In this document: positions 16,401 to 24,858 of the stretch, piece by piece | Position numbering within the stretch: the stretch's first letter is position 1 | How the letters are laid out: each line of letters begins with the position of its first letter | Assembly: GCA_964612925.1 (NCBI GenBank) | Contig: CAZTFU010000003.1 | Span: forward strand, 23,425-87,424 | Reading direction: 5' to 3' | DNA length: 64,000 nt | Origin: an uncultured Clostridium sp. | Lineage (GTDB): Bacteria; Bacillota; Clostridia; Christensenellales; CAG-138 | Notes under the pieces: model-generated | Databases searched by the model: none | Told to the model about the DNA's origin: nothing | What the model saw: the letters and a program-made list of their open reading frames with translations, nothing else | Made by a program: the position numbers and the translations under genes

Positions 16401-16549
16401 CAGCTCAGCACAAACTCTGCGGCTCCTCTCACAAATGTTTACATAAGCTTCATACCCTTGCCCTCAACCATTACCGCGCAAGTGATAAACTTGGGTTGAA
16501 GGTGGGGTGACATTGTTGTATAATAGGTTTTGTGTGAGGTTTTGATACT

Positions 16550-18124
16550 ATGGCAGACAGACAGCGGGGCTCCGCCCCTCAAAAGGCCGCAAGCAGGCGG
16601 GAAAACAGTTTTACACACCCAAAGGCCGTTTCAAGGGCCTTGCTTATTGCGCTTGCCGCCGCAAGCATCATAGTGGCGGTGCTGTATATATTCGTAGGCA
16701 AACAGGATACGGATGTTGAACAGCTTATTGATGACGGTACCATTCTTCAGGGCGTAAGCATAAACGGCATTGACGTATCGGGCATGGACTATAAGGCCGC
16801 ACGAGAAGCGGTACTGCCAAGCGTTGAAGAACAGCTTTACAAAATAAACATAACCGTTGCCCATTCAAGCACTGCGTGGCTGCTCACCGCCGCCGATATG
16901 CAACCCGTGAGCACGCTCGATTCCGCGATTACGGAGGCATTGCTTCTCGGGCGCAGCGGCAGTATAGTCGAAAACGCAAAGCAAAAGGATGATATAGCCG
17001 AAAACGGGTATGACATTTCCGTATACTTTATTCCCGATGAAGATGCCCTTATGGCTCGCCTGTATGAGATAGGCGCGGTGCTTGACGTGGCAAGCGTTGA
17101 ACCGTATGCGGAGGCCGTTACCTCCTCTACGGAGCCTGAATTTATATTCCACGAGGGCATTGACGGCTATGTTCTTGATGAGGAGGCACTCTATGCGGAC
17201 ATAGTTGCCCTGCTTGAGGCGGGTCAGCTCAGTGCAACGCTTTCGCCTTCGCTTGAATACAGCGCTCCTTCCGCTACGGTTGAGGATATAAAGGCCAATA
17301 CCCGGCTTGTTTCCACATTTCAAACTTCCTTTGGCGGCAGTCGTGCCGCGCGCAACGAAAACCGCGTAGGCAACATACAAAAGGCGTGTACACTGCTTAA
17401 CGGCCACCGTGTTGAGGATAAAACGGAGTTCAGCTTTAACGGCTACATAGGCCCCCGCACGGAGGAAGGCGGCTGGCCGCTTGCCCCGGGCATAGTAAAC
17501 GGCAACAGGTATGAAGATGAGCCGGGCGGCGGCATTTGCCAAGTCTCCACGACCCTTTACAATGCACTGCTTTGCGCAAACGCAAGTATGCAGCGCGGCT
17601 CAACGCTTGAAGATATTCTTGAGCAAAATATAGAGGGTATCTCCATTACCGAGCGCAAGCACCATTCGTGGCCGTCAAGCTATGTCGATACGGGACTTGA
17701 TTCAACCGTTACGGGCACGGTGGAAAACGGCAAAAGCCTTGATTTTGTGAACAATACGGGTTATCCTATATATATATTCGCCTACTGTGACCAAGCGGCG
17801 TATACCGTTACCGTGTATATATACGGCAAACCGCTTGAAGAGGGCGTAACGTATCAGGTGCGCGGCGTTGTTGAAGAGGTGATTGAGCCGGGCGAAACGA
17901 TAATCACCTATGATATGACAAAGCCTGCCGACTACAGCGAAGTGACCATAACCGCCCGCAAGGGCTACAAGGCCGCCGCGTACAGGGACAAGTACCTAAA
18001 CGGCATATTGGTCGAGGATGCAACGGAACTTCTCTATACGGAGACGTACAGGGCCGTTACGGGCGAAAAAATCGTGGGTACGGGCGGAGCTCAGCCGCCT
18101 GTAACAACGACTCAGGAAGGGTAG
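16550..18124 (+). CDS. VanW-family protein (membrane-anchored)
   Basis: 524 aa with an N-terminal TM. VanW core: GGGICQVSTTLYNA ... ERKHHSWPSSYV. Confidence 0.8.
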   Translation: MADRQRGSAPQKAASRRENSFTHPKAVSRALLIALAAASIIVAVLYIFVGKQDTDVEQLIDDGTILQGVSINGIDVSGMDYKAAREAVLPSVEEQLYKINITVAHSSTAWLLTAADMQPVSTLDSAITEALLLGRSGSIVENAKQKDDIAENGYDISVYFIPDEDALMARLYEIGAVLDVASVEPYAEAVTSSTEPEFIFHEGIDGYVLDEEALYADIVALLEAGQLSATLSPSLEYSAPSATVEDIKANTRLVSTFQTSFGGSRAARNENRVGNIQKACTLLNGHRVEDKTEFSFNGYIGPRTEEGGWPLAPGIVNGNRYEDEPGGGICQVSTTLYNALLCANASMQRGSTLEDILEQNIEGISITERKHHSWPSSYVDTGLDSTVTGTVENGKSLDFVNNTGYPIYIFAYCDQAAYTVTVYIYGKPLEEGVTYQVRGVVEEVIEPGETIITYDMTKPADYSEVTITARKGYKAAAYRDKYLNGILVEDATELLYTETYRAVTGEKIVGTGGAQPPVTTTQEG

Positions 18125-18189
18125 CTTTACCGAGGCGAAAGCCTTGGAGCGATATAAACATAAGCATTAACATTCAGGAGGAAAACACT

Positions 18190-19386
18190 ATGAAGTTTTC
18201 GAGCAAAATCGAAAAATGCAACCTTTCTCCCATCCGCAAGTTCTACCCCTATCAGGTGGAATGTGCAAAGCGTGGGATAAAGATCTACCATCTCAATATC
18301 GGCCAGCCCGATATAGCCACCCCGCCGGCATATTTTGATGCCGTAAAGGATTTCAAGCTTCCGGTGCTCGAATATGCTCCATCCCCCGGAATACCCGATA
18401 TGGTGAAGGCTGTTCAGGGCTATTATGACAACCTTGGCATACACTATGCCACCAATGACATCTTTGTCACCACCGGCGGCAGTGAGGCACTGACCATCGC
18501 ACTCAACTGCATACTTGATGACGGTGACGAGATAATCATTCCCGAACCCTTCTATCCCAACTACAACACGTTTGTCCGCACGACCGGCGCAACAATCCGT
18601 CCCCTTACCACCCATGCGGAGGAGGGCTACAAGTTCGCCATCCGCGAGCGCATAGAGGCTCTTATAAACGAGCATACCCGCGCGATACTGTTCACCAACC
18701 CCGGCAACCCCACGGGTACCGTGCTTACCCCCGAGGAGCTTAGGGTAATGGCGGATGTGGCCAAGGAGCATGACCTGTTCCTTATCGGTGACGAGGTGTA
18801 CCGTGAGTTCGTATACGGCGGCGAGCCGCTTGCAACCATAGGTCAGTTTGAAGATATCAATGATAATGCAATTATCATAGACTCCGTTTCAAAGCGTTTC
18901 AGCGCGTGCGGTGCCCGTATAGGCTGCATGATAACCCGTAACAAGCAGCTGCAGCAGAACGCAATGAAGTTCTGTCAGGCTCGTTTGAGCGTTGCTACAC
19001 TTGACCAAGTTGCATCCGCCGCGCTTTACACCGTTGGCAGCGAATACTTTGACGAGGTGCGTGACGAATACCGCCGCCGCCGCGATACCATCTATCGCAA
19101 GCTGCTCGAGATACCCGGCGTTGTCTGCAAGGAGCCCAAGGGTGCATTCTACGTAATGGCAAAGCTGCCCGTTGACGATACCGACAAGTTCCAGACTTGG
19201 CTGCTCACCGAGTTCAGCGACAATAACGAAACCGTTATGTATGCGCCCGGCAACGGCTTCTACGCCACTCCCGGTCACGGCGTGAACGAGGTTCGCTTGG
19301 CCTACGTGCTCAAGTGCGAAGATATCGAGCGCGCAATGGACCTGCTTGCAAAGGCAATCAAGCAGTACAACGAGCTGAATAAATAA
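18190..19386 (+). CDS. Class I/II PLP-dependent aminotransferase (aspartate/aromatic type)
   Basis: 398 aa; PNYNT, NPGNPTG, SVSKRFSACGARIG (PLP lysine). Confidence 0.85.
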   Translation: MKFSSKIEKCNLSPIRKFYPYQVECAKRGIKIYHLNIGQPDIATPPAYFDAVKDFKLPVLEYAPSPGIPDMVKAVQGYYDNLGIHYATNDIFVTTGGSEALTIALNCILDDGDEIIIPEPFYPNYNTFVRTTGATIRPLTTHAEEGYKFAIRERIEALINEHTRAILFTNPGNPTGTVLTPEELRVMADVAKEHDLFLIGDEVYREFVYGGEPLATIGQFEDINDNAIIIDSVSKRFSACGARIGCMITRNKQLQQNAMKFCQARLSVATLDQVASAALYTVGSEYFDEVRDEYRRRRDTIYRKLLEIPGVVCKEPKGAFYVMAKLPVDDTDKFQTWLLTEFSDNNETVMYAPGNGFYATPGHGVNEVRLAYVLKCEDIERAMDLLAKAIKQYNELNK

Positions 19387-19400
19387 GCTTAAGCATATAA

Positions 19401-19433
19401 ATAGGGGATGGAGCAACCATCCCCCTATTTTTG
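19401..19433 (+). terminator. Rho-independent terminator of the aminotransferase gene
   Basis: ataggggatgg-agcaa-ccatccccctat followed by ttttt. Confidence 0.7.
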
Positions 19434-19589
19434 TGCATTTTTGACTGTCGGCTTTCGAAATGAGTCGGTGGGGCACAGTGTGCGCCTTGTAAAGCTCAGC
19501 ATAAACGGTGAACCGGTGAGCTTGAGCGAGGGAGCATAACAGATGCGCTCCCGAGCGGCACGAACGGGGGACGATGGGGGCGCAAGAAT

Positions 19590-19680
19590 CTATCGCCACC
19601 CGTATCGCCACCCAAAAAACGCCTAAATATCTACGTTTTGGACGATTGGACGATGGGGGCGATGGTTTTATGGGAGAGCG
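19590..19680 (+). repeat. Solo copy of the inverted-repeat arm that flanks the RepA-like gene
   Basis: atcgccaccc x2 ... gcctaaatatctacgttttggacgattggacgatgg..ggtttta parallels 24268-24357. Confidence 0.6.
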
Positions 19681-19721
19681 TCAAGTGAGCTGCCGTCTTG
19701 GCTCGTTTGTGCGGGAGAAAA

Positions 19722-19830
19722 AAGCCTCCCCTGTGTAAGGGGAGGTGGCAAAATCTCTGATTTTGACGGAGGGGTTGTCGAGACTGTACAGTGCGACTTT
19801 ATGCCCTCTCAGTCACGGCTTACGCCGCCA
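19722..19830 (+). repeat. Intergenic repeat module R2
   Basis: cctcccc-tgtgtaa-ggggagg, caaaatc-tct-gattttg, acggagggg ... tgcgactttatgccctctcagtc. Confidence 0.65.
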
Positions 19831-19836
19831 AGTATA

Positions 19837-20040
19837 GTGAAATCGTTCGCTTACACTCACGGTGAAATAATCCGCTTTGCGGATTGTGAAATTTGATGCT
19901 GTGCATCAAGTGAAATGAAATCCATCCACCGCCGCGGCGATTTCATACGCCGTAGGCGTATTTCACATGGCTAAGCCATATTTCACCCACCCGCAAGGGT
20001 GGATTTCGTTGAAAATAAGCAAATGCTTATTTTCAAGGGG
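19837..20040. repeat. Array of 4 x GTGAAAT then 4 x ATTTCAY, interleaved with unrelated short perfect hairpins
   Basis: 7-mers at 19837, 19862, 19886 and 19910 (forward) and at 19940, 19960, 19980 and 20003 (reverse). Hairpins include aatccgc/gcggatt, ttgatgc/gcatcaa, acgcc/ggcgt, atggc/gccat, ccaccc/gggtgg, gaaaataagc/gcttattttc. Confidence 0.7.
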
Positions 20041-20102
20041 GAGCCAAGGGCAGTGAAAAGCGGGAATCCCTCCCTCCTCTTCATCCTTATCTCTTATCTT
20101 CT

Positions 20103-21365
20103 TTATGCCGTGGGGTCGTTCACAACGCCCATGAACAGTGCGCCGTATGAGCTCTTTATGATGAATATGAACGGGCGGTCGAGTATGATGTCCGCATTGT
20201 CCTGAGGCAGAGCCGCACCTGCGTAGTCTATCTTGGTGAATGCGGCGGCCTCAACGCCCCGCTCGTCTATGGCGATGTGCGTTTGCTGAGCTATGGATGA
20301 TATGTACATTTCATCGTTATCGCATAGCTGTGAAAAATCCGCACTGTCAGTGAATGCGCTCTCCACGCCCAGCGAACGGAGCGCAGGCACAAGGTCAAAT
20401 TCCGAATCGAAACTAAACTTGGGTATTTTGAACGTTACCGTGCCGTAGCTTGATTCCTTGCCGCCTGAGAGTATCTCCTCAAGCGTGGCGGAAGATGAGA
20501 GGATATCGGCTGTGCTCACGCCCTCATCGGGGAGCACGAACAGCATAGAACCGTAGTTTTTGAGAGATACTCCCGCCGCGGTATAGTTATCGCCGTACAT
20601 AAAGCTCTGTTGTTTTACCGCATTCATGAAGTCGCACTTCACTTCGCTGCCGTCCGCCTTTGTGAAGGTATCAGCGGCGGTGGAGGCTTTGTCAAAGCGG
20701 TCAATCCACTCATCCTTTAAGTAGAGCGTACTTATGATGCTCATAATTTGTTCCGCATTTACATCAAATGTGGGCGCAATGGTGCCGTGGGTCTTATCCT
20801 TTATCCAATCGGCCATTGCGTCCGCCGTGCTTTGGCTTGCAAAGTCCGCGCTGTATACCTCTGCATAGAATTGCTCCGCACTCATGTTCAGATACTCTTC
20901 ATTAAAGCCCTCCGTCCCGCTCAGCCAAAGCGAATTTGCAAGCATAAGTGCCGCATTGCCGTCCGTATCATGGCTTGCAAGAACGCGGTAGACGTTGCCG
21001 CATTGCTCAGCGAGGGTCTTGGTATCGTCAAAGCCCAAAAGGGAGAGCAGCTCATCCGCCGTGTCACCATCAGCTCCGCACGCCGCCATACTTAGCGCAT
21101 AATAAAGGCTCAGCGGGGAATAGCACTTGTTTTCGCTTTCGCTTGTCAAAAGAAGTCCCGCAGTCACGGCGGAAAATGCGTTTATTGCGGCAGTCGTGCC
21201 GCCGTCAATGGGGTTTTCCTCCCTTAGGTCATACCATTTGTCAAAAGAGAGCTGCTTTACCTCGCTCACCGAGTTCAGCTCGGTGGGCTTTGTGTTTGTC
21301 GTACCCGTACAGCCGCACATAAGTAGCATACACAGGCAAAGCGCGGCAGATAAGATTCTTTTCAT
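20103..21365 (-). CDS. Serpin-family protease inhibitor, lipoprotein-anchored
   Basis: 420 aa from MKRIL (the first ATG of the ORF lies too close to the RBS). Lipobox LLMCGC. Hinge/RCL DERGVEAAAFTKIDYAGAALP and C-terminus RPFIFIIK...ALFMGVVNDP parallel alpha-1-antitrypsin. Confidence 0.85.
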   Translation of the reverse strand: MKRILSAALCLCMLLMCGCTGTTNTKPTELNSVSEVKQLSFDKWYDLREENPIDGGTTAAINAFSAVTAGLLLTSESENKCYSPLSLYYALSMAACGADGDTADELLSLLGFDDTKTLAEQCGNVYRVLASHDTDGNAALMLANSLWLSGTEGFNEEYLNMSAEQFYAEVYSADFASQSTADAMADWIKDKTHGTIAPTFDVNAEQIMSIISTLYLKDEWIDRFDKASTAADTFTKADGSEVKCDFMNAVKQQSFMYGDNYTAAGVSLKNYGSMLFVLPDEGVSTADILSSSATLEEILSGGKESSYGTVTFKIPKFSFDSEFDLVPALRSLGVESAFTDSADFSQLCDNDEMYISSIAQQTHIAIDERGVEAAAFTKIDYAGAALPQDNADIILDRPFIFIIKSSYGALFMGVVNDPTA

Positions 21366-21485
21366 ATATAGCATATCCTTTCGCTTTTATATTAAAACGG
21401 TTAGTGCGGGGCAAAGGTTGCATATTTTTTGCCTTGACATAAGAGCACGCATAATATAGGCTAATTTTAGCATATATTTGGAGGT

Positions 21486-22703
21486 ATGAATATGGCTACC
21501 CATTTGATAAACCCCGCATTGCAAAGTGAACAGCGCCTTGCGGTGGGCATGATGTCGGGCACATCGGTTGACGGCATTGATGCCGCGCTTATCGAAATAA
21601 GCGGTGACGATTCCCGACCCACAGTAAAGCTTATCGCATTTGAGAATAAGCCTTTTCCCGCCGCCGTGCGCGAGAAGATATTCGAGCTTTTCCGTAAAGA
21701 GACCGCCACGGTGGACAAGGTGGGCTACATGAACTTTCTTTTGGGGGAAATATACGCTAAGAGCGCACTGTCCATTATCAAAAAGGGAGGTGTTCGCCCG
21801 GAGGATGTAAGCGTGATAGGCTCACACGGTCAGACCATATGGCATTCGCCCACGCCCCAAAATGATGACGGCTTTCCCGTGCGCTGCACGGTGCAGATAG
21901 GCGAAGGGAGCGTTATCGCTTCCCGCACGGGCGTTGTCACCGTGTCCGATTTCAGGGTTGCCGACATGGCCGAGGGCGGACAGGGAGCGCCTCTTGTGCC
22001 GTGGAGCGAGTATCTTCTCTACAGGCGAAGCGATGCAACAATACTGCTTCAAAACATAGGCGGCATAGGCAACATGACCGTTTTACCCGAGGGTGCCCCA
22101 AGCGATAATGTATTTGCGTTCGACACGGGTGCGGGCAATATGATAATAGACGCGGTTGTAAGCGCCTTAACGCATGGAGAGGAAACATATGACAGGGGCG
22201 GAGAGCGTGCGGAGCGCGGCAATGTGTGCAGTGAGCTGCTCTCACTCCTTCAGCAGGATGAATACTACACTTGTCCCCTGCCCAAAACCACGGGCAGGGA
22301 GCGTTTCGGCACACAATATACTCAAAAGATACTCGAGTGGCGCAGAGCGCATTCATTAAGCGACAATGACCTTGTGGCCACGGTTACGGAGCTTACCGCG
22401 TGGAGCATTTGTGCCGCATATGAGCATTATGTTCTGCCGAAATACAGGGCAAGCGAGCTTATTGTCGGCGGCGGCGGCAGTTACAATAAGACCCTTATGA
22501 AAATGCTGTCTTCCCGCTTTGCGCCCCTTGGCGTTGCCGTGCGCACGCAGGAGGACATGGGCTTGAGCAGCGATGCAAAGGAGGCCGTTGCCTTCGCCCT
22601 GCTTGCAGATGCTTGTGTACGCGGCAAAGCAAACACGCTGCCGAGCGTGACGGGCGCGCGCAAGCAATCCATAATGGGCAAGATATCGCTGCCGTGGAAG
22701 TAG
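21486..22703 (+). CDS. anmK: Anhydro-N-acetylmuramic acid kinase
   Basis: 405 aa with GMMSGTSVDGIDAAL at the N-terminus. ASKHA fold pattern. Confidence 0.85.
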   Translation: MNMATHLINPALQSEQRLAVGMMSGTSVDGIDAALIEISGDDSRPTVKLIAFENKPFPAAVREKIFELFRKETATVDKVGYMNFLLGEIYAKSALSIIKKGGVRPEDVSVIGSHGQTIWHSPTPQNDDGFPVRCTVQIGEGSVIASRTGVVTVSDFRVADMAEGGQGAPLVPWSEYLLYRRSDATILLQNIGGIGNMTVLPEGAPSDNVFAFDTGAGNMIIDAVVSALTHGEETYDRGGERAERGNVCSELLSLLQQDEYYTCPLPKTTGRERFGTQYTQKILEWRRAHSLSDNDLVATVTELTAWSICAAYEHYVLPKYRASELIVGGGGSYNKTLMKMLSSRFAPLGVAVRTQEDMGLSSDAKEAVAFALLADACVRGKANTLPSVTGARKQSIMGKISLPWK

Positions 22704-22716
22704 GGAGAGACTCTCC

Positions 22717-22844
22717 GTAAAACCATCGTCCAATCGTCCAATCGTCCAAAATGTAGATATTTAGGCATTTTTTCAGGGTCGATAGCAGGGACGATAGATT
22801 TTATCGACCCTGTTGCGTCCCTTGCCGTCACTCGTTCGTGCACA
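22717..22844. repeat. Left 128-bp inverted repeat (IR-L)
   Basis: gtaaaaccatcgtccaatcgtccaatcgtccaaaatgtagatatttaggcattttttcagggtcgat...gcgtcccttgccgtcactcgttcgtgcaca equals the reverse complement of 24228-24357 with about 10 mismatches. Confidence 0.85.
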
Positions 22845-24021
22845 AAGAGCAGAGTGATTCACTTATCTCCTCCTGCTCTCCATTTATACCCTGTTTTACA
22901 AGCCGCACGCCTCGTATGCCGTTCCTCTTTACTCCGCACTCGGCCTTGAGCGCAAGCTCGCAGCCGTGGCGGGACATGAATGCGTTTATCTCGTTCACAA
23001 GCACTCGCGCCGTGGCGGGTGGTGTGCCGCCGTTCTCCCGTATGCCGTTCATTATGCTTGCATATGAAATGAACACGCTTCTCTCATCATTTGCATTTGC
23101 CGCAAGGCAAAGCGTTATGCCAAGGGGGCTTGTCACCTCATAGGCCGTCTCCTTGTCCTTTATGCGGTCAACGCGCCACAGCCCGTTATCAAACACGAGC
23201 GGCACGTCATCAAAGGCAATATCTCGCCCTACGCCGCTCAATACGGCGTCATTGCCGCCGCGCTTTCGGTCAAGAAGAAGCGTGGTATCCGCCGCGCCCA
23301 TGAGACCTGTAGAGCCCGATACCTTCTCATACGGGTCATCCGTCTGCCTTAGCTTATTTGTGTGGTGAACAAGCACCACCGCAACCGAGTAGCGGCTTGC
23401 AAAGCCCTTGAGAAGCCGCATAAAGCGGTAATCTGCGGCATAGGCGTTCACTCCGCCGCCCGATATGCCGCGTATCACCTGCAGCGTATCTATCACGATA
23501 ACGCTCGGGTTGAGGTGCGCATTATTCTCCTTCACATTCTTGTCAAAGGCGGAAGATAGCCTGTCAAGAAAGCCCTCGTCTATCGTGGGGGACTCGAATA
23601 TGAATGTCAAGTCCGCCGCATCGGCATTCACCGCCCCGCCGCTCAGGCGCATAAGGCGCTTTTTCATGCGGTACGCGCTATCCTCAAGCGCAAAGTACCA
23701 CACGCGGCCTCGCTCTGTCGCCCTGTCGAGAAAGCTCTTTCCCAGTGCGATAGATAGGCACATATCAAGCACAAGCCAGCTTTTGCCTATCTTGCTTGCC
23801 CCGACAAGCAGCGTTACGCCCGGCACGATAAGCCCCTCAACTATCTGCCGTGGCGCTTTGAACGCAAAGCTTGAGAGAGTAAGGGCATTTATACTGCTCT
23901 CAGCGCTTTTGGCAAGCTTTTTGTCAGGCTCGATACCCTCATCGTTTATATCTATGCTGAGGGTACAGCTCTCCTTTTTGTCTTTGCCGTCAGTGGGCAA
24001 AGGAAAAATGTTTTCGTTCAC
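22828..24021 (-). CDS. RecA-fold AAA_25 / RepA-like ATPase (plasmid- or phage-type replicative helicase family)
   Basis: Walker A GASKIGKS, Walker B VIVIDTL, VLVHHTNK. The start is reassigned to GTG at 24021, 7 nt after AAGGAGG. The 459-aa track ORF extends upstream through a terminator and is probably too long. Confidence 0.7.
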   Translation of the reverse strand: MNENIFPLPTDGKDKKESCTLSIDINDEGIEPDKKLAKSAESSINALTLSSFAFKAPRQIVEGLIVPGVTLLVGASKIGKSWLVLDMCLSIALGKSFLDRATERGRVWYFALEDSAYRMKKRLMRLSGGAVNADAADLTFIFESPTIDEGFLDRLSSAFDKNVKENNAHLNPSVIVIDTLQVIRGISGGGVNAYAADYRFMRLLKGFASRYSVAVVLVHHTNKLRQTDDPYEKVSGSTGLMGAADTTLLLDRKRGGNDAVLSGVGRDIAFDDVPLVFDNGLWRVDRIKDKETAYEVTSPLGITLCLAANANDERSVFISYASIMNGIRENGGTPPATARVLVNEINAFMSRHGCELALKAECGVKRNGIRGVRLVKQGINGEQEEISESLCSLCTNE

Positions 24022-24061
24022 AAATGAACCTCCTTGTATAAAAATAGACGGAAAGAGATAT

Positions 24062-24096
24062 AGAAAAAGCCCCTCATCCGCAGTGGATGAAGGGCT
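24062..24096 (-). terminator. Strong terminator-like hairpin inside the 5' leader of the RepA-like gene
   Basis: Minus strand agcccttcatcc-actgc-ggatgaggggct followed by tttttc. It lies between an extended -10 (TGTTATAAT, 24127-24135) and the RBS. Confidence 0.5.
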
Positions 24097-24164
24097 AAAG
24101 GCCATACCTATTATTCCGTCATAAAGATTATAACATGAGCAAAGAGGCATTGCGAGGGCAAAAA

Positions 24165-24240
24165 AATCGCATTTTTTGCGCACAAAATGTGCACGAAATG
24201 GGTGCAAAACGGGTGCAAATTGTGCACGAAATGTGCACGA
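24165..24240 (-). promoter_or_regulatory. Iteron cluster: TTCGTGCACA x3 and TTTGCACCC x2
   Basis: Read on the minus strand: cgTTCGTGCACAtTTCGTGCACAaTTTGCACCCgtTTTGCACCCaTTTCGTGCACA. Confidence 0.55.
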
Positions 24241-24357
24241 ACGAGTGACGGCAAGGGACGCATCAGGGTCGATAAACTTATCGACCCTGACATCGACCCT
24301 GAAAAAATGCCCAAATATCTACATTTTGGACGATTGGACGATTGGACGATGGTTTTA
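24228..24357. repeat. Right 128-bp inverted repeat (IR-R)
   Basis: See IR-L. Contains ATCGACCCTG x3 (one inverted) and TGGACGAT x3. Its outer end overlaps the ppiB stop codon. Confidence 0.85.
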
Positions 24358-24858
24358 CATCTTCTCGGGTTCCTCAATCTCGCCCTCGTCCACAACGCTT
24401 ACGGTCTTTATGCGCTGCTCAATGAGCGGCTTATCCCTGAAATCGGTGGGCGCGGCGGCTATTGCGTCCACCGTATCCATGCCGAGAGTAACGCGCCCGA
24501 AGGCGGCATACTGCCCGTCAAGGTGCGGCGCGTTTTGGTGCATTATAAAGAACTGACTGCCCGCGCTGTTCGGGTCCATTGCGCGTGCCATTGATATTAC
24601 GCCGCGCGTGTGCTTGAGGGGGTTGTCAAAGCCGTTTGCGCGGAATTCGCCGCGTATGCTGTAGTCAGGTCCGCCCATGCCCGTGCCCTCGGGGCAGCCG
24701 CCCTGTATCATAAAGCCGGGAATTACACGGTGGAATATAAGTCCGTCATAAAACCCCTTTGAAGCAAGGCTTAAAAAGTTTTTGACCGTGTTGGGTGCGG
24801 CAGACCTGTCCATTTCAAGCGTTATCTTGCCGCCGTTTTCCATTTCGATAATGACCAT
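24355..24858 (-). CDS. ppiB: Peptidyl-prolyl cis-trans isomerase, cyclophilin type
   Basis: 167 aa; FHRVIPGFMIQGG, SMARAMDPNSAGSQFFI. Confidence 0.9.
   Translation of the reverse strand: MVIIEMENGGKITLEMDRSAAPNTVKNFLSLASKGFYDGLIFHRVIPGFMIQGGCPEGTGMGGPDYSIRGEFRANGFDNPLKHTRGVISMARAMDPNSAGSQFFIMHQNAPHLDGQYAAFGRVTLGMDTVDAIAAAPTDFRDKPLIEQRIKTVSVVDEGEIEEPEKM

Follow-up and report, generated by a model that had tools for sequence, protein, structure and literature searches.

In the 64,000-nt stretch analysed here (the window; from contig CAZTFU010000003.1 of assembly GCA_964612925.1, an uncultured Clostridium sp.), a gene for a RepA-type helicase is enclosed by two inverted copies, IR-L and IR-R, of an iteron-bearing repeat unit. 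The unit belongs to a family dispersed in related chromosomes. Its members share one anatomy and one rule of pairing, they are linked exclusively to the clade of the enclosed helicase, and whole cassettes bounded by such inverted repeats (IRs) have been duplicated. From anatomy and co-evolution, the arms may be read as origin-like loading sites for the enclosed helicase, and the unit as an integrase-less descendant of a satellite-type Rep-origin (Rep-ori) module, persisting as an IR-bounded cassette. Our confidence in this reading is evenly balanced.

The inverted arms at the helicase locus

The 128-bp inverted repeat reported in the initial annotation is real. A repeat search returned two arm pairs, 22717-22801/24274-24358 (85 nt, 93%) and 22800-22844/24232-24276 (45 nt, 98%), and blastn merged both stretches into 128 nt of 94.5% identity. 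In a pairwise alignment the identity ended at the inner borders given by the initial annotation and, at IR-R, at the stop codon of ppiB. Taken to the borders of the repeat family (Table 1), the arms are 94% complementary.

The sub-repeats and the AT-rich core were present where they had been placed. The outer part of IR-L carries three forward 9-mers in tandem (ATCGTCCAA, 22725-22749), mirrored in IR-R by three copies of TTGGACGAT (24326-24350). The AT-rich core, AAAATGTAGATATTTAGGCATTTTTT, is 26 nt long, ends in T6 and lies at 22748-22773, with its mirror at 24302-24327. The inner 9-mers, AGGGTCGAT, AGGGACGAT and ATCGACCCT, are found at 22775, 22787 and 22803 in IR-L and at 24265, 24280 and 24292 in IR-R. 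In IR-L the first two are reverse and the third is forward, and they read AGGG(T/A)CGAT / ATCGACCCT. The inner extension of IR-L runs to ...CGTTCGTGCACA.

The stop codon of anmK ends at 22703, 13 nt before the arm start of the initial annotation. The first arm does begin just past this stop codon, with its border moved outward from 22717, since homology to the repeat family is already seen from 22711; the distance between anmK and IR-L is 7-13 nt. At the other end the ppiB stop codon (24355-24357) lies inside the outer end of IR-R, and the enclosed gene ends within IR-L, which takes in its last five codons and the stop, both as had been described. No Rfam family was matched in the arms; the sole matches of the search were to Gut-1, about 160 nt from the solo copy of the unit in the window. 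In single-strand folding the inner palindrome alone was convincing, with z about -3.8 in IR-R and -1.7 in IR-L. A hairpin of the whole unit, with a long stem between outer and inner iterons, was considered and found unsupported by folding.

Members, anatomy and pairing of the repeat family

The initial annotation had proposed a genome search for further arm copies. In this genome (G000; 61 contigs, 98.8% complete) nine repeat-unit copies were found. Three are without a partner: one on contig C19, one at the end of C36, and the solo copy in the window at 19572-19677, for which no degenerate partner was found in the window with filters off. A covariance model (R1), built from 16 units of four genomes, counted 8 units in G000, 10 in G001, 11 in G003, 14 in G009, 19 in G011 and 3 in G012. 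At the set thresholds it found nothing in ten other members of the genus or in more than 100 further genomes sampled from the taxonomic family, save one weak match. The repeat core was not found in viral contigs of public collections, and the genome collection gave chance matches only, plus one promoter-like match in a Stercoripulliclostridium metagenome-assembled genome (MAG). On these comparisons the family appears confined to one sub-clade of one genus. A fixed, syntenic arrangement with no other copies, which the initial annotation had set against its own reading, fails because nine copies are present here and dozens in sister species.

All subfamilies follow one plan: three forward 9-mers (A/T)(T/G)CGTCNNN, an AT-rich core ending in T5-6, and an inner half of two reverse 9-mers spaced by 12 nt and, beyond an AT spacer of 6-7 nt, one forward 9-mer. 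The CGTC/GACG and the T-run were invariant in 16 aligned units from four genomes. The trinucleotide after CGTC varies by subfamily (CAA/CCT, ACT, CCT, CGC/CGG, GAA, CCC), and it covaries between the reverse and forward inner sites. Pairing was seen in 82.5% of cells against 72.5% in shuffles, the covariation score lay above that of every one of 500 shuffles, and slid controls gave 31-52%. Inside each unit lies a near-perfect palindrome, CAGGGTCGATAA-2 nt-TTATCGACCCTG.

Units come nearly always as inverted pairs, which were counted in five genomes (six in G009, three in G000, two in G003 and one each in G001 and G011). All of them are plus-then-minus, with the outer ends outward and the units 0.8-1.75 kb apart, and three further loci show the same order. 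In fragmented assemblies, units are seen at contig ends with their inner side toward the break, as would be expected if assemblers fail to pass an inverted pair.

The pairs enclose varied cargo. In G000 the pair on contig C7 flanks the arginine deiminase gene (arcA), and that on C20 flanks a D-Ala-D-Ala dipeptidase (VanX-type, Peptidase_M15) gene together with a 207-aa open reading frame (ORF) without a Pfam match. The G001 cassette carries a coiled-coil LPXTG-type surface protein, the cargo in G011 includes small, hydrophobic, toxin-like peptides that have a promoter and terminator of their own, and some interiors in G009 are non-coding. Two G011 loci, L075 (C82:8600-9336) and L088 (C26:2900-4600), both encode the short hydrophobic peptide MTWSEFLAFLMFVIELFKIFLRVLRFVVKL(I/V)(K/R)KEK, and the peptide gene is opposed by a strong promoter and terminator on the other strand, as in type I toxin-antitoxin systems.

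The enclosed helicase

As initially annotated, a single gene lies between the arms, without a transposase, integrase or primase, and its product has the motifs GASKIGKS, VIVIDTL and VLVHHTNK. The start is most likely the GTG at 24021, with AAGGAGG 8 nt upstream; with the stop at 22828 this gives 397 aa, and the 459-aa ORF of the program-made list is too long. An identical 397-aa product is present in the protein collection, and the gene is single-copy in this genome.

Pfam PF13481 (AAA_25) was matched at E=2.1e-28 against a 27-bit cut-off, in line with the earlier assignment, and GASKIGKS, VIVIDTLQ and HHTNK are invariant across 29 homologues. A profile of these homologues, searched against PDB sequences, matched RSF1010 RepA (E=1.7e-9) and also RadA and DnaB. 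The AlphaFold model (pLDDT 80) has a disordered N-terminus, a RecA-type core at about residues 55-285 and a C-terminal domain at about 290-376. Foldseek searches of the core against PDB returned RadA (8rxc), RepA (1nlf/1g8y), DnaB (4esv) and T7 gp4 at E=1e-9 to 4e-11, RSF1010 RepA being matched at E=4e-11 with a TM score of 0.69 on the target. Viral matches were replicative helicases and primase-helicases, and PHROG matches were primase/helicase families. By sequence and modelled fold, the protein belongs to the AAA_25 / RepA-DnaB-type (SF4, RecA-fold) helicases, and a hexamer with helicase activity is predicted.

The C-terminal domain has the topology H-H-E-H-H-E-E at pLDDT about 90. When it was modelled alone, nearly all Foldseek matches were winged-helix proteins (ORC1/2, Cdc6/Orc1, PadR, CodY, MarR), the best at E=0.04. 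Since none of them is significant, the domain is called a putative winged helix from its topology. No nuclease, recombinase or primase domain was found in the protein, and the PADLOC defence-system models gave no match of note. The Rep of Staphylococcus aureus pathogenicity islands (SaPIs) was not among the best 50 sequence or fold matches, all top ones being of the SF4/RecA type.

Association of the helicase clade with the repeats

Both flanks are assembled in six lineages of the helicase clade, namely the present one, G009/L074, G003/L010, L121, L122 and G004/L012 (46-60% identity to the present protein). All six are bracketed by inverted CGTC 9-mer arrays, and the cassettes occupy unrelated chromosomal sites in each lineage. 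G009/L074 (60% identity, beside genes for UvrD and a C39 peptidase) and G003/L010 (59%) have the same six-site architecture as here. L121 (52%) lies beside ftsZ / ftsA, with arms that are 99% complementary and a third unit 1 kb away. In L122 (46%, beside ahpC) the array is ACGTCGCTT x4 and the right arm encodes the C-terminal tail of the protein; in G004/L012 (46%) it is CACGTCGCC x4 with arms that are 98% complementary. The nearest homologues, 84-86% identical, are on Logan contigs of 1364 and 1458 bp, about the length of the interior between the arms. One of them, L073 (84%), ends in an IR-like segment, and the other, L072 (86%), has none within the last ~50 nt of its short contig.

Homologues at 34-44% identity are without such inverted flanks. 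In the islands L123 and L124 the gene order is tyrosine integrase, HTH_3, HTH_17 (Xis-like), Zn-ribbon-DnaG, AAA_25 and small ORFs. In the island L125 the Zn-ribbon-DnaG partner is kept and no integrase was called within 8 kb. L125 was the one island inspected for iterons. Its AAA_25 gene is directly followed (L125:9165-9420) by GGTAACGTW 9-mers, seven in tandem, and, beyond a spacer with T6, by ACCAACGAT 9-mers, nine in tandem; this array has the layout of a classical single iteron origin placed 3′ of rep.

In this genus, only the repeat-bearing genomes G000, G003, G009 and G004 yielded the clade helicase, and G008 is without either. The helicase is the one cargo that is always found with such repeats, which points to a stripped-down replicon-like cassette and not to an ordinary gene.

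Locus history and possible mobility of the cassettes

The cassette had been described as inserted exactly between anmK and ppiB. This is too simple, because the locus has been rearranged and not simply interrupted. In four sister species (L037-L040) the order is serpin(-), aminotransferase(-), VanW(-), ppiB(-), the helicase gene is not near ppiB, and anmK is not within ~10 kb of it. Relative to these species, in the compared stretch 16538-21386, the VanW-aminotransferase block is inverted and moved with respect to the serpin gene, and the solo unit, which lies between the aminotransferase and serpin genes, and IR-R sit at two rearrangement breakpoints. An exact look-up of ppiB for an empty site in strains gave no match, and a metagenome scan with anmK returned other species only (at most 76% identical), and in none of them did anmK have units nearby.

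Whole cassettes appear to be what spreads, to judge from the unrelated sites, the varied cargo and a duplicate in G009. There, two cassettes match at 85% identity along 1019 nt; the match runs exactly IR to IR, and the flanking DNA is unrelated. The G001 cassette site coincides with an assembly break in G012. The bracketed arcA is a vertical orthologue, 85% identical to those of G009/G011 and still linked to serC-serA; here it is on the other side of serCA, and units are beside it in this genome only.

No mover was found. As the initial annotation had noted, there is no target-site duplication: none was visible at 10 pairs, whose outer ends are ill-defined and mosaic. Self-megablast of the genome gave no multicopy element >1 kb. 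In the genomes examined no transposase lies within a pair, with DDE families not searched exhaustively and RAYT/Y1 not searched. The initial annotation had also proposed a recombinase encoded elsewhere. G000 has one Xer-type tyrosine recombinase, which is shared by all relatives, and two small serine recombinases; small serine recombinases are also found in G009 and are lacking in the repeat-rich G001, G003 and G011. Recombinases of these two types neither neighbour the units nor share their distribution; none tracks the repeats. The two small serine recombinases of G000 are stand-alone, paralogous proteins of 205 aa each, encoded at C1:8620-9237 (+) and C43:59-676 (-) among housekeeping genes, with no mobile element adjacent and no repeat unit detected nearby.

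The upstream region of the helicase gene

The probable promoter (Table 1) lies inside the cassette. Its extended -10 box is kept in the cassettes L072, L073, L012, L121 and L122, and it was not flagged by a consensus scan because the -35 is weak. A terminator-like hairpin in the 5′ leader is retained via compensatory changes in L072 and L073. This leader is kept in all helicase cassettes (the present one, L072, L073, L012, L122), with a TATGACGGA box, the hairpin, CCGTC...TTTTGG and the start codon in this order; judged from its conservation, the leader may be an attenuator or a small RNA.

Between promoter and IR-R, the region of 11-bp repeats together with a GCGCAAAAAATGCG palindrome (24149-24241) is 86% identical over 93 nt to G000:C39:100-215. 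The counterpart on contig C39 precedes a scaffold-like ORF and then a Phage_capsid_3 gene, both in a phage-like cluster of ~8.4 kb with capsid, a 476-aa ORF, an NlpC-like protein and a DnaC/IstB-like ATPase. The shared upstream region suggests a regulation common to the helicase gene and this capsid operon.

Proposed origin-like function of the arms and alternative explanations

The arms are read as loading sites because their layout matches that of the self-loading Rep helicase and origin of SaPIs (PMC9371898). We infer, from this layout and from the co-evolution of arms and protein, that the helicase binds and loads at the arms, that replication may start there, and how new copies could arise. 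The C-terminal domains would bind the iterons, the six 9-mers being occupied by the tails of one hexamer or of two opposed rings; the helicase ring would assemble at an arm and open the AT-rich core. The ~1.65-kb unit of origin, rep and origin would derive, in stripped-down form, from a Rep-ori module such as small integrative islands carry. Compared with its island relatives, it would have lost the integrase, the regulators and the zinc-ribbon primase partner and gained a second, inverted origin, and it would then have persisted and spread as an IR-bounded cassette. The same units are also found without a helicase, as pairs around other genes or non-coding stretches. The mini-replicon or satellite named among the options of the initial annotation is favoured by the iteron-origin anatomy, the RepA-type helicase with its winged-helix-like tail, the wider family in integrase islands and the L125 array. 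A non-autonomous mobile cassette had also been named there: the cassette holds, as the same repeat flanks other genes and whole cassettes recur, but 'non-autonomous' is unwarranted because only this cassette type carries the one conserved protein of the family.

Several observations weigh against arms that serve as loading sites. G001, G011 and G012 carry 3-19 units and no detectable helicase, which could equally mean that the units need no helicase. The missing gene may be an assembly artefact, an argument that is an excuse and not evidence: a helicase cassette is easily lost from binned MAGs, because its interior is ~1.4 kb and assemblies break at the arms. Close homologues are on contigs of 1.36-2.2 kb broken at repeats, and the G003 helicase is on a 2168-bp contig. 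One genome carries several iteron subtypes but only one helicase, and the 84-86% identical proteins have about the same putative recognition helix though at least one iteron differs. The winged helix is assigned by topology, with the Foldseek value given above. The vertically inherited arcA has gained units in place, which fits independently inserting repeats better than an imported cassette. Finally, with neither a nuclease or recombinase domain in the protein nor a primase to partner it, the arrival of copies at new sites is left unexplained.

The alternative with the strongest claim, which we nevertheless regard as doubtful, is that the cassettes are mobile insertion cassettes (MICs) or composite miniature inverted-repeat transposable elements, with the arms as transposon ends moved in trans by a transposase that is encoded elsewhere or was lost, and the helicase as a frequent passenger. 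The diverse cargo, the outward orientation of every pair, the exact IR-to-IR duplication, the units in genomes without a detected helicase and the many other short dispersed repeats of these genomes would all fit. Yet a 98.8%-complete genome has no multicopy insertion sequence (IS) >1 kb, no target duplication is seen, and no pair brackets a transposase in the genomes examined, DDE families not having been searched systematically. If the helicase were only a passenger, it would not be expected to have kept its co-diverging repeats in lineages as distant as 46% identity when sister clades have none, and the tandem 9-mers of L125, a homologue without IRs, are in the position of an origin. The co-diverging, exclusive link with one helicase clade and the array after the L125 gene are equally unexplained if the units are mosaic intergenic repeats like the bacterial interspersed mosaic elements (BIMEs) of Escherichia coli or the neisserial intergenic mosaic elements (NIMEs), spread by recombination or a RAYT-like enzyme without a helicase link, the pairs being a by-product. 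Such repeats would account for the mosaics of units with Gut-1 motifs and repetitive extragenic palindrome (REP)-like hairpins, for the dozens of other short repeat families and for the arcA bracketed in place, but the pairs are too strictly oriented, and too regular in their 0.8-1.75-kb spacing, to be put down to chance, and we consider this explanation unlikely.

An on/off switch, with the gene flipped by a site-specific recombinase or by RecA at the 128-bp arms, is rather improbable. The inverted arms, the near-perfect palindrome in each unit, the two stand-alone small serine recombinases and the units at breakpoints of local inversion and relocation would be in keeping with it. Against it, these recombinases are absent from the repeat-rich G001, G011 and G003, the sole tyrosine recombinase is the Xer-type common to all relatives, and the palindrome spacing varies (6 vs 7 nt); and since the promoter of the helicase gene lies inside the cassette, flipping would not switch the gene. 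A different extension, to which we give little credence, is a new selfish element consisting of a helicase-initiator and two inverted origins of its own. Induced firing, which could coincide with induction of the phage-like capsid operon on contig C39 through the shared promoter module, would over-replicate the interior, fork breakage or strand switching would make copies and rearrangements without a transposase, and the amplified segments of at most 2 kb might be enriched in capsids of the C39 cluster. The cargo would be the element's own gene, arcA, the VanX-type dipeptidase gene and the toxin cassettes. That the arms simply terminate convergent transcription between anmK, the helicase gene and ppiB is hardly credible. 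They do lie at the 3′ ends of these three genes and each has a T6 run, but no G+C-rich stem precedes the run, a terminator scan found nothing in the arms, the unit is also found upstream of genes and at nine places in the genome, and the conserved features are 9-mer arrays and not a hairpin. Copy number and unit anatomy rule this reading out.

If the arms are indeed loading sites, the cassette would be the smallest self-contained replication module yet seen in a bacterial chromosome, with one gene and two origins, spread as a cassette without a recognisable recombinase. This would bear on the decay or domestication of phage-satellite replication modules, on origin firing as a driver of gene amplification and rearrangement in gut Clostridia, and on how 'orphan' repeat pairs end up around ordinary metabolic genes.

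Gut-1 and other dispersed repeats

Weinberg et al. (2010; PMC2864571) described Gut-1 (Rfam RF01706) as an orphan non-coding RNA of human-gut metagenomes, for which neither a host nor a function was known. Nine copies were found in G000, mostly as inverted pairs, 15 in G009, 11 in G011 and 2 in G008, so that the motif gains a genomic home in this genus, with copies in four of its genomes. Four GTGAAAT boxes ~21 nt apart, with hairpins between them, make up the motif, and in six cassettes of G011 and G009 it begins 12-16 nt inside the inner end of the unit. Gut-1 is a separate module and not part of IR-L or IR-R. Because it is often fused to the inner end of units and has the GTGAAAT-box structure, a module associated with the element or working at the DNA level may be a better description of it than a free-standing non-coding RNA.

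A 338-bp segment, made up of a REP-like hairpin and an inverted Gut-1 pair, is present at G000:C7:83987-84324 and at G000:C3:43137-43474 (window 19713-20050) with 97% identity. Each copy adjoins the outer end of a minus-oriented unit and is better conserved than the units themselves. Other dispersed repeat families of ~125, 65 and 60 nt (L086:2028-2153, 319-386 and 1650-1710) have dozens of copies each; they match in G000, G003, G009, G011 and G012, the 125-nt family with nine copies in G000.

Table 1. Features of the helicase locus, the solo repeat unit and Gut-1. Positions are those of the window unless a contig is named.
Feature	Position	Strand	Basis or remark
IR-L, one origin-like repeat unit	22711-22844	+	covariance model R1, 103 bits
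IR-R, inverted copy of the IR-L unit	24232-24364	-	covariance model R1, 92.5 bits
Gene for 397-aa RepA-type (AAA_25, RecA/SF4) helicase	22828-24021	-	ORF, Pfam, structure model
Terminator-like hairpin in the 5′ leader, upstream of the start codon; 12 bp followed by TTTTCT	24068-24096	-	
Probable promoter, extended -10 box TGTTATAAT	24127-24139	-	read from sequence
Six phased 11-bp repeats, TGTGCACGAAA / GGGTGCAAAA type	24176-24242	-	between IR-R and promoter
Solo repeat unit	19572-19677	-	90.8 bits; subfamily shared with the arcA cassette on C7
Gut-1	19835-19921	+	
Gut-1	19935-20011	-	
Gut-1, elsewhere	G000:C7:84026-84202; C7:83735-83812; C20:29186-29365; C28:58-237		

Comparison with known systems

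RepA-type helicases, iteron origins and IR-bounded cassettes are known parts. Their combination, a helicase between two inverted origin-like sites, dispersed in chromosomes together with helicase-less pairs around ordinary genes, appears to be undescribed; in the literature nothing like an AAA_25 helicase with terminal inverted repeats, or a transposase-less helicase-bearing element, was found.

The BIMEs of E. coli, the NIMEs and the Correia elements are modular intergenic repeats of varied order that are linked to rearrangements. They are not known to form strict outward-facing pairs around single genes or to be linked with a dedicated helicase. The alpha protein of satellite phage P4 is a helicase-initiator with a C-terminal iteron-binding domain and two separated iteron clusters, ori and crr, in cis. 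The present cassette is like it in having one putative helicase-initiator and two separated iteron clusters. Alpha has a primase domain and belongs to another helicase superfamily, and ori and crr are 4.5 kb apart in an 11.6-kb satellite with an integrase. The nearest solved relative of the ATPase core is RSF1010 RepA (PDB 1G8Y, 1NLF), which is without a C-terminal DNA-binding domain of the kind predicted for the present protein and relies on a separate initiator, RepC, and a primase, RepB′.

MICs (MIC231 of Bacillus cereus; the Tn3-type of Xanthomonas, PMC4337579) are likewise short, IR-bounded and transposase-less, with varied passengers. Their ends match a known IS or transposon whose transposase moves them, and target duplications are made, whereas neither a parent IS nor a duplication was found here and the ends are origin-like and tied to a helicase.

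A close parallel in layout is the Rep-ori of SaPIs and other phage-inducible chromosomal islands. SaPI Reps bind 6-12 iterons immediately downstream of rep via a C-terminal winged helix, and the iterons flank an AT-rich centre, pointing in opposite directions on its two sides (PMC9371898). A C-terminal DNA-binding domain of this kind is predicted here from topology, and neither system has a separate loader (PMC9371898); in both, short iterons follow directly after rep and are opposed around an AT-rich centre, IR-L starting within the last codons of the gene. The ATPase core is RecA/SF4 here, whereas SaPI Reps have been likened to SF3 and MCM (SF6) (PMC9371898), and the iterons are 9-mers here and 5-6-mers in SaPIs. 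The present cassette is also without integrase, primase, packaging and regulatory genes, its origin-like site is present twice, as inverted arms around rep, and extra pairs bracket unrelated genes. Because its ATPase is not homologous to SaPI Rep, the enclosed helicase may be said to work like a SaPI Rep and not to be a member of that family.

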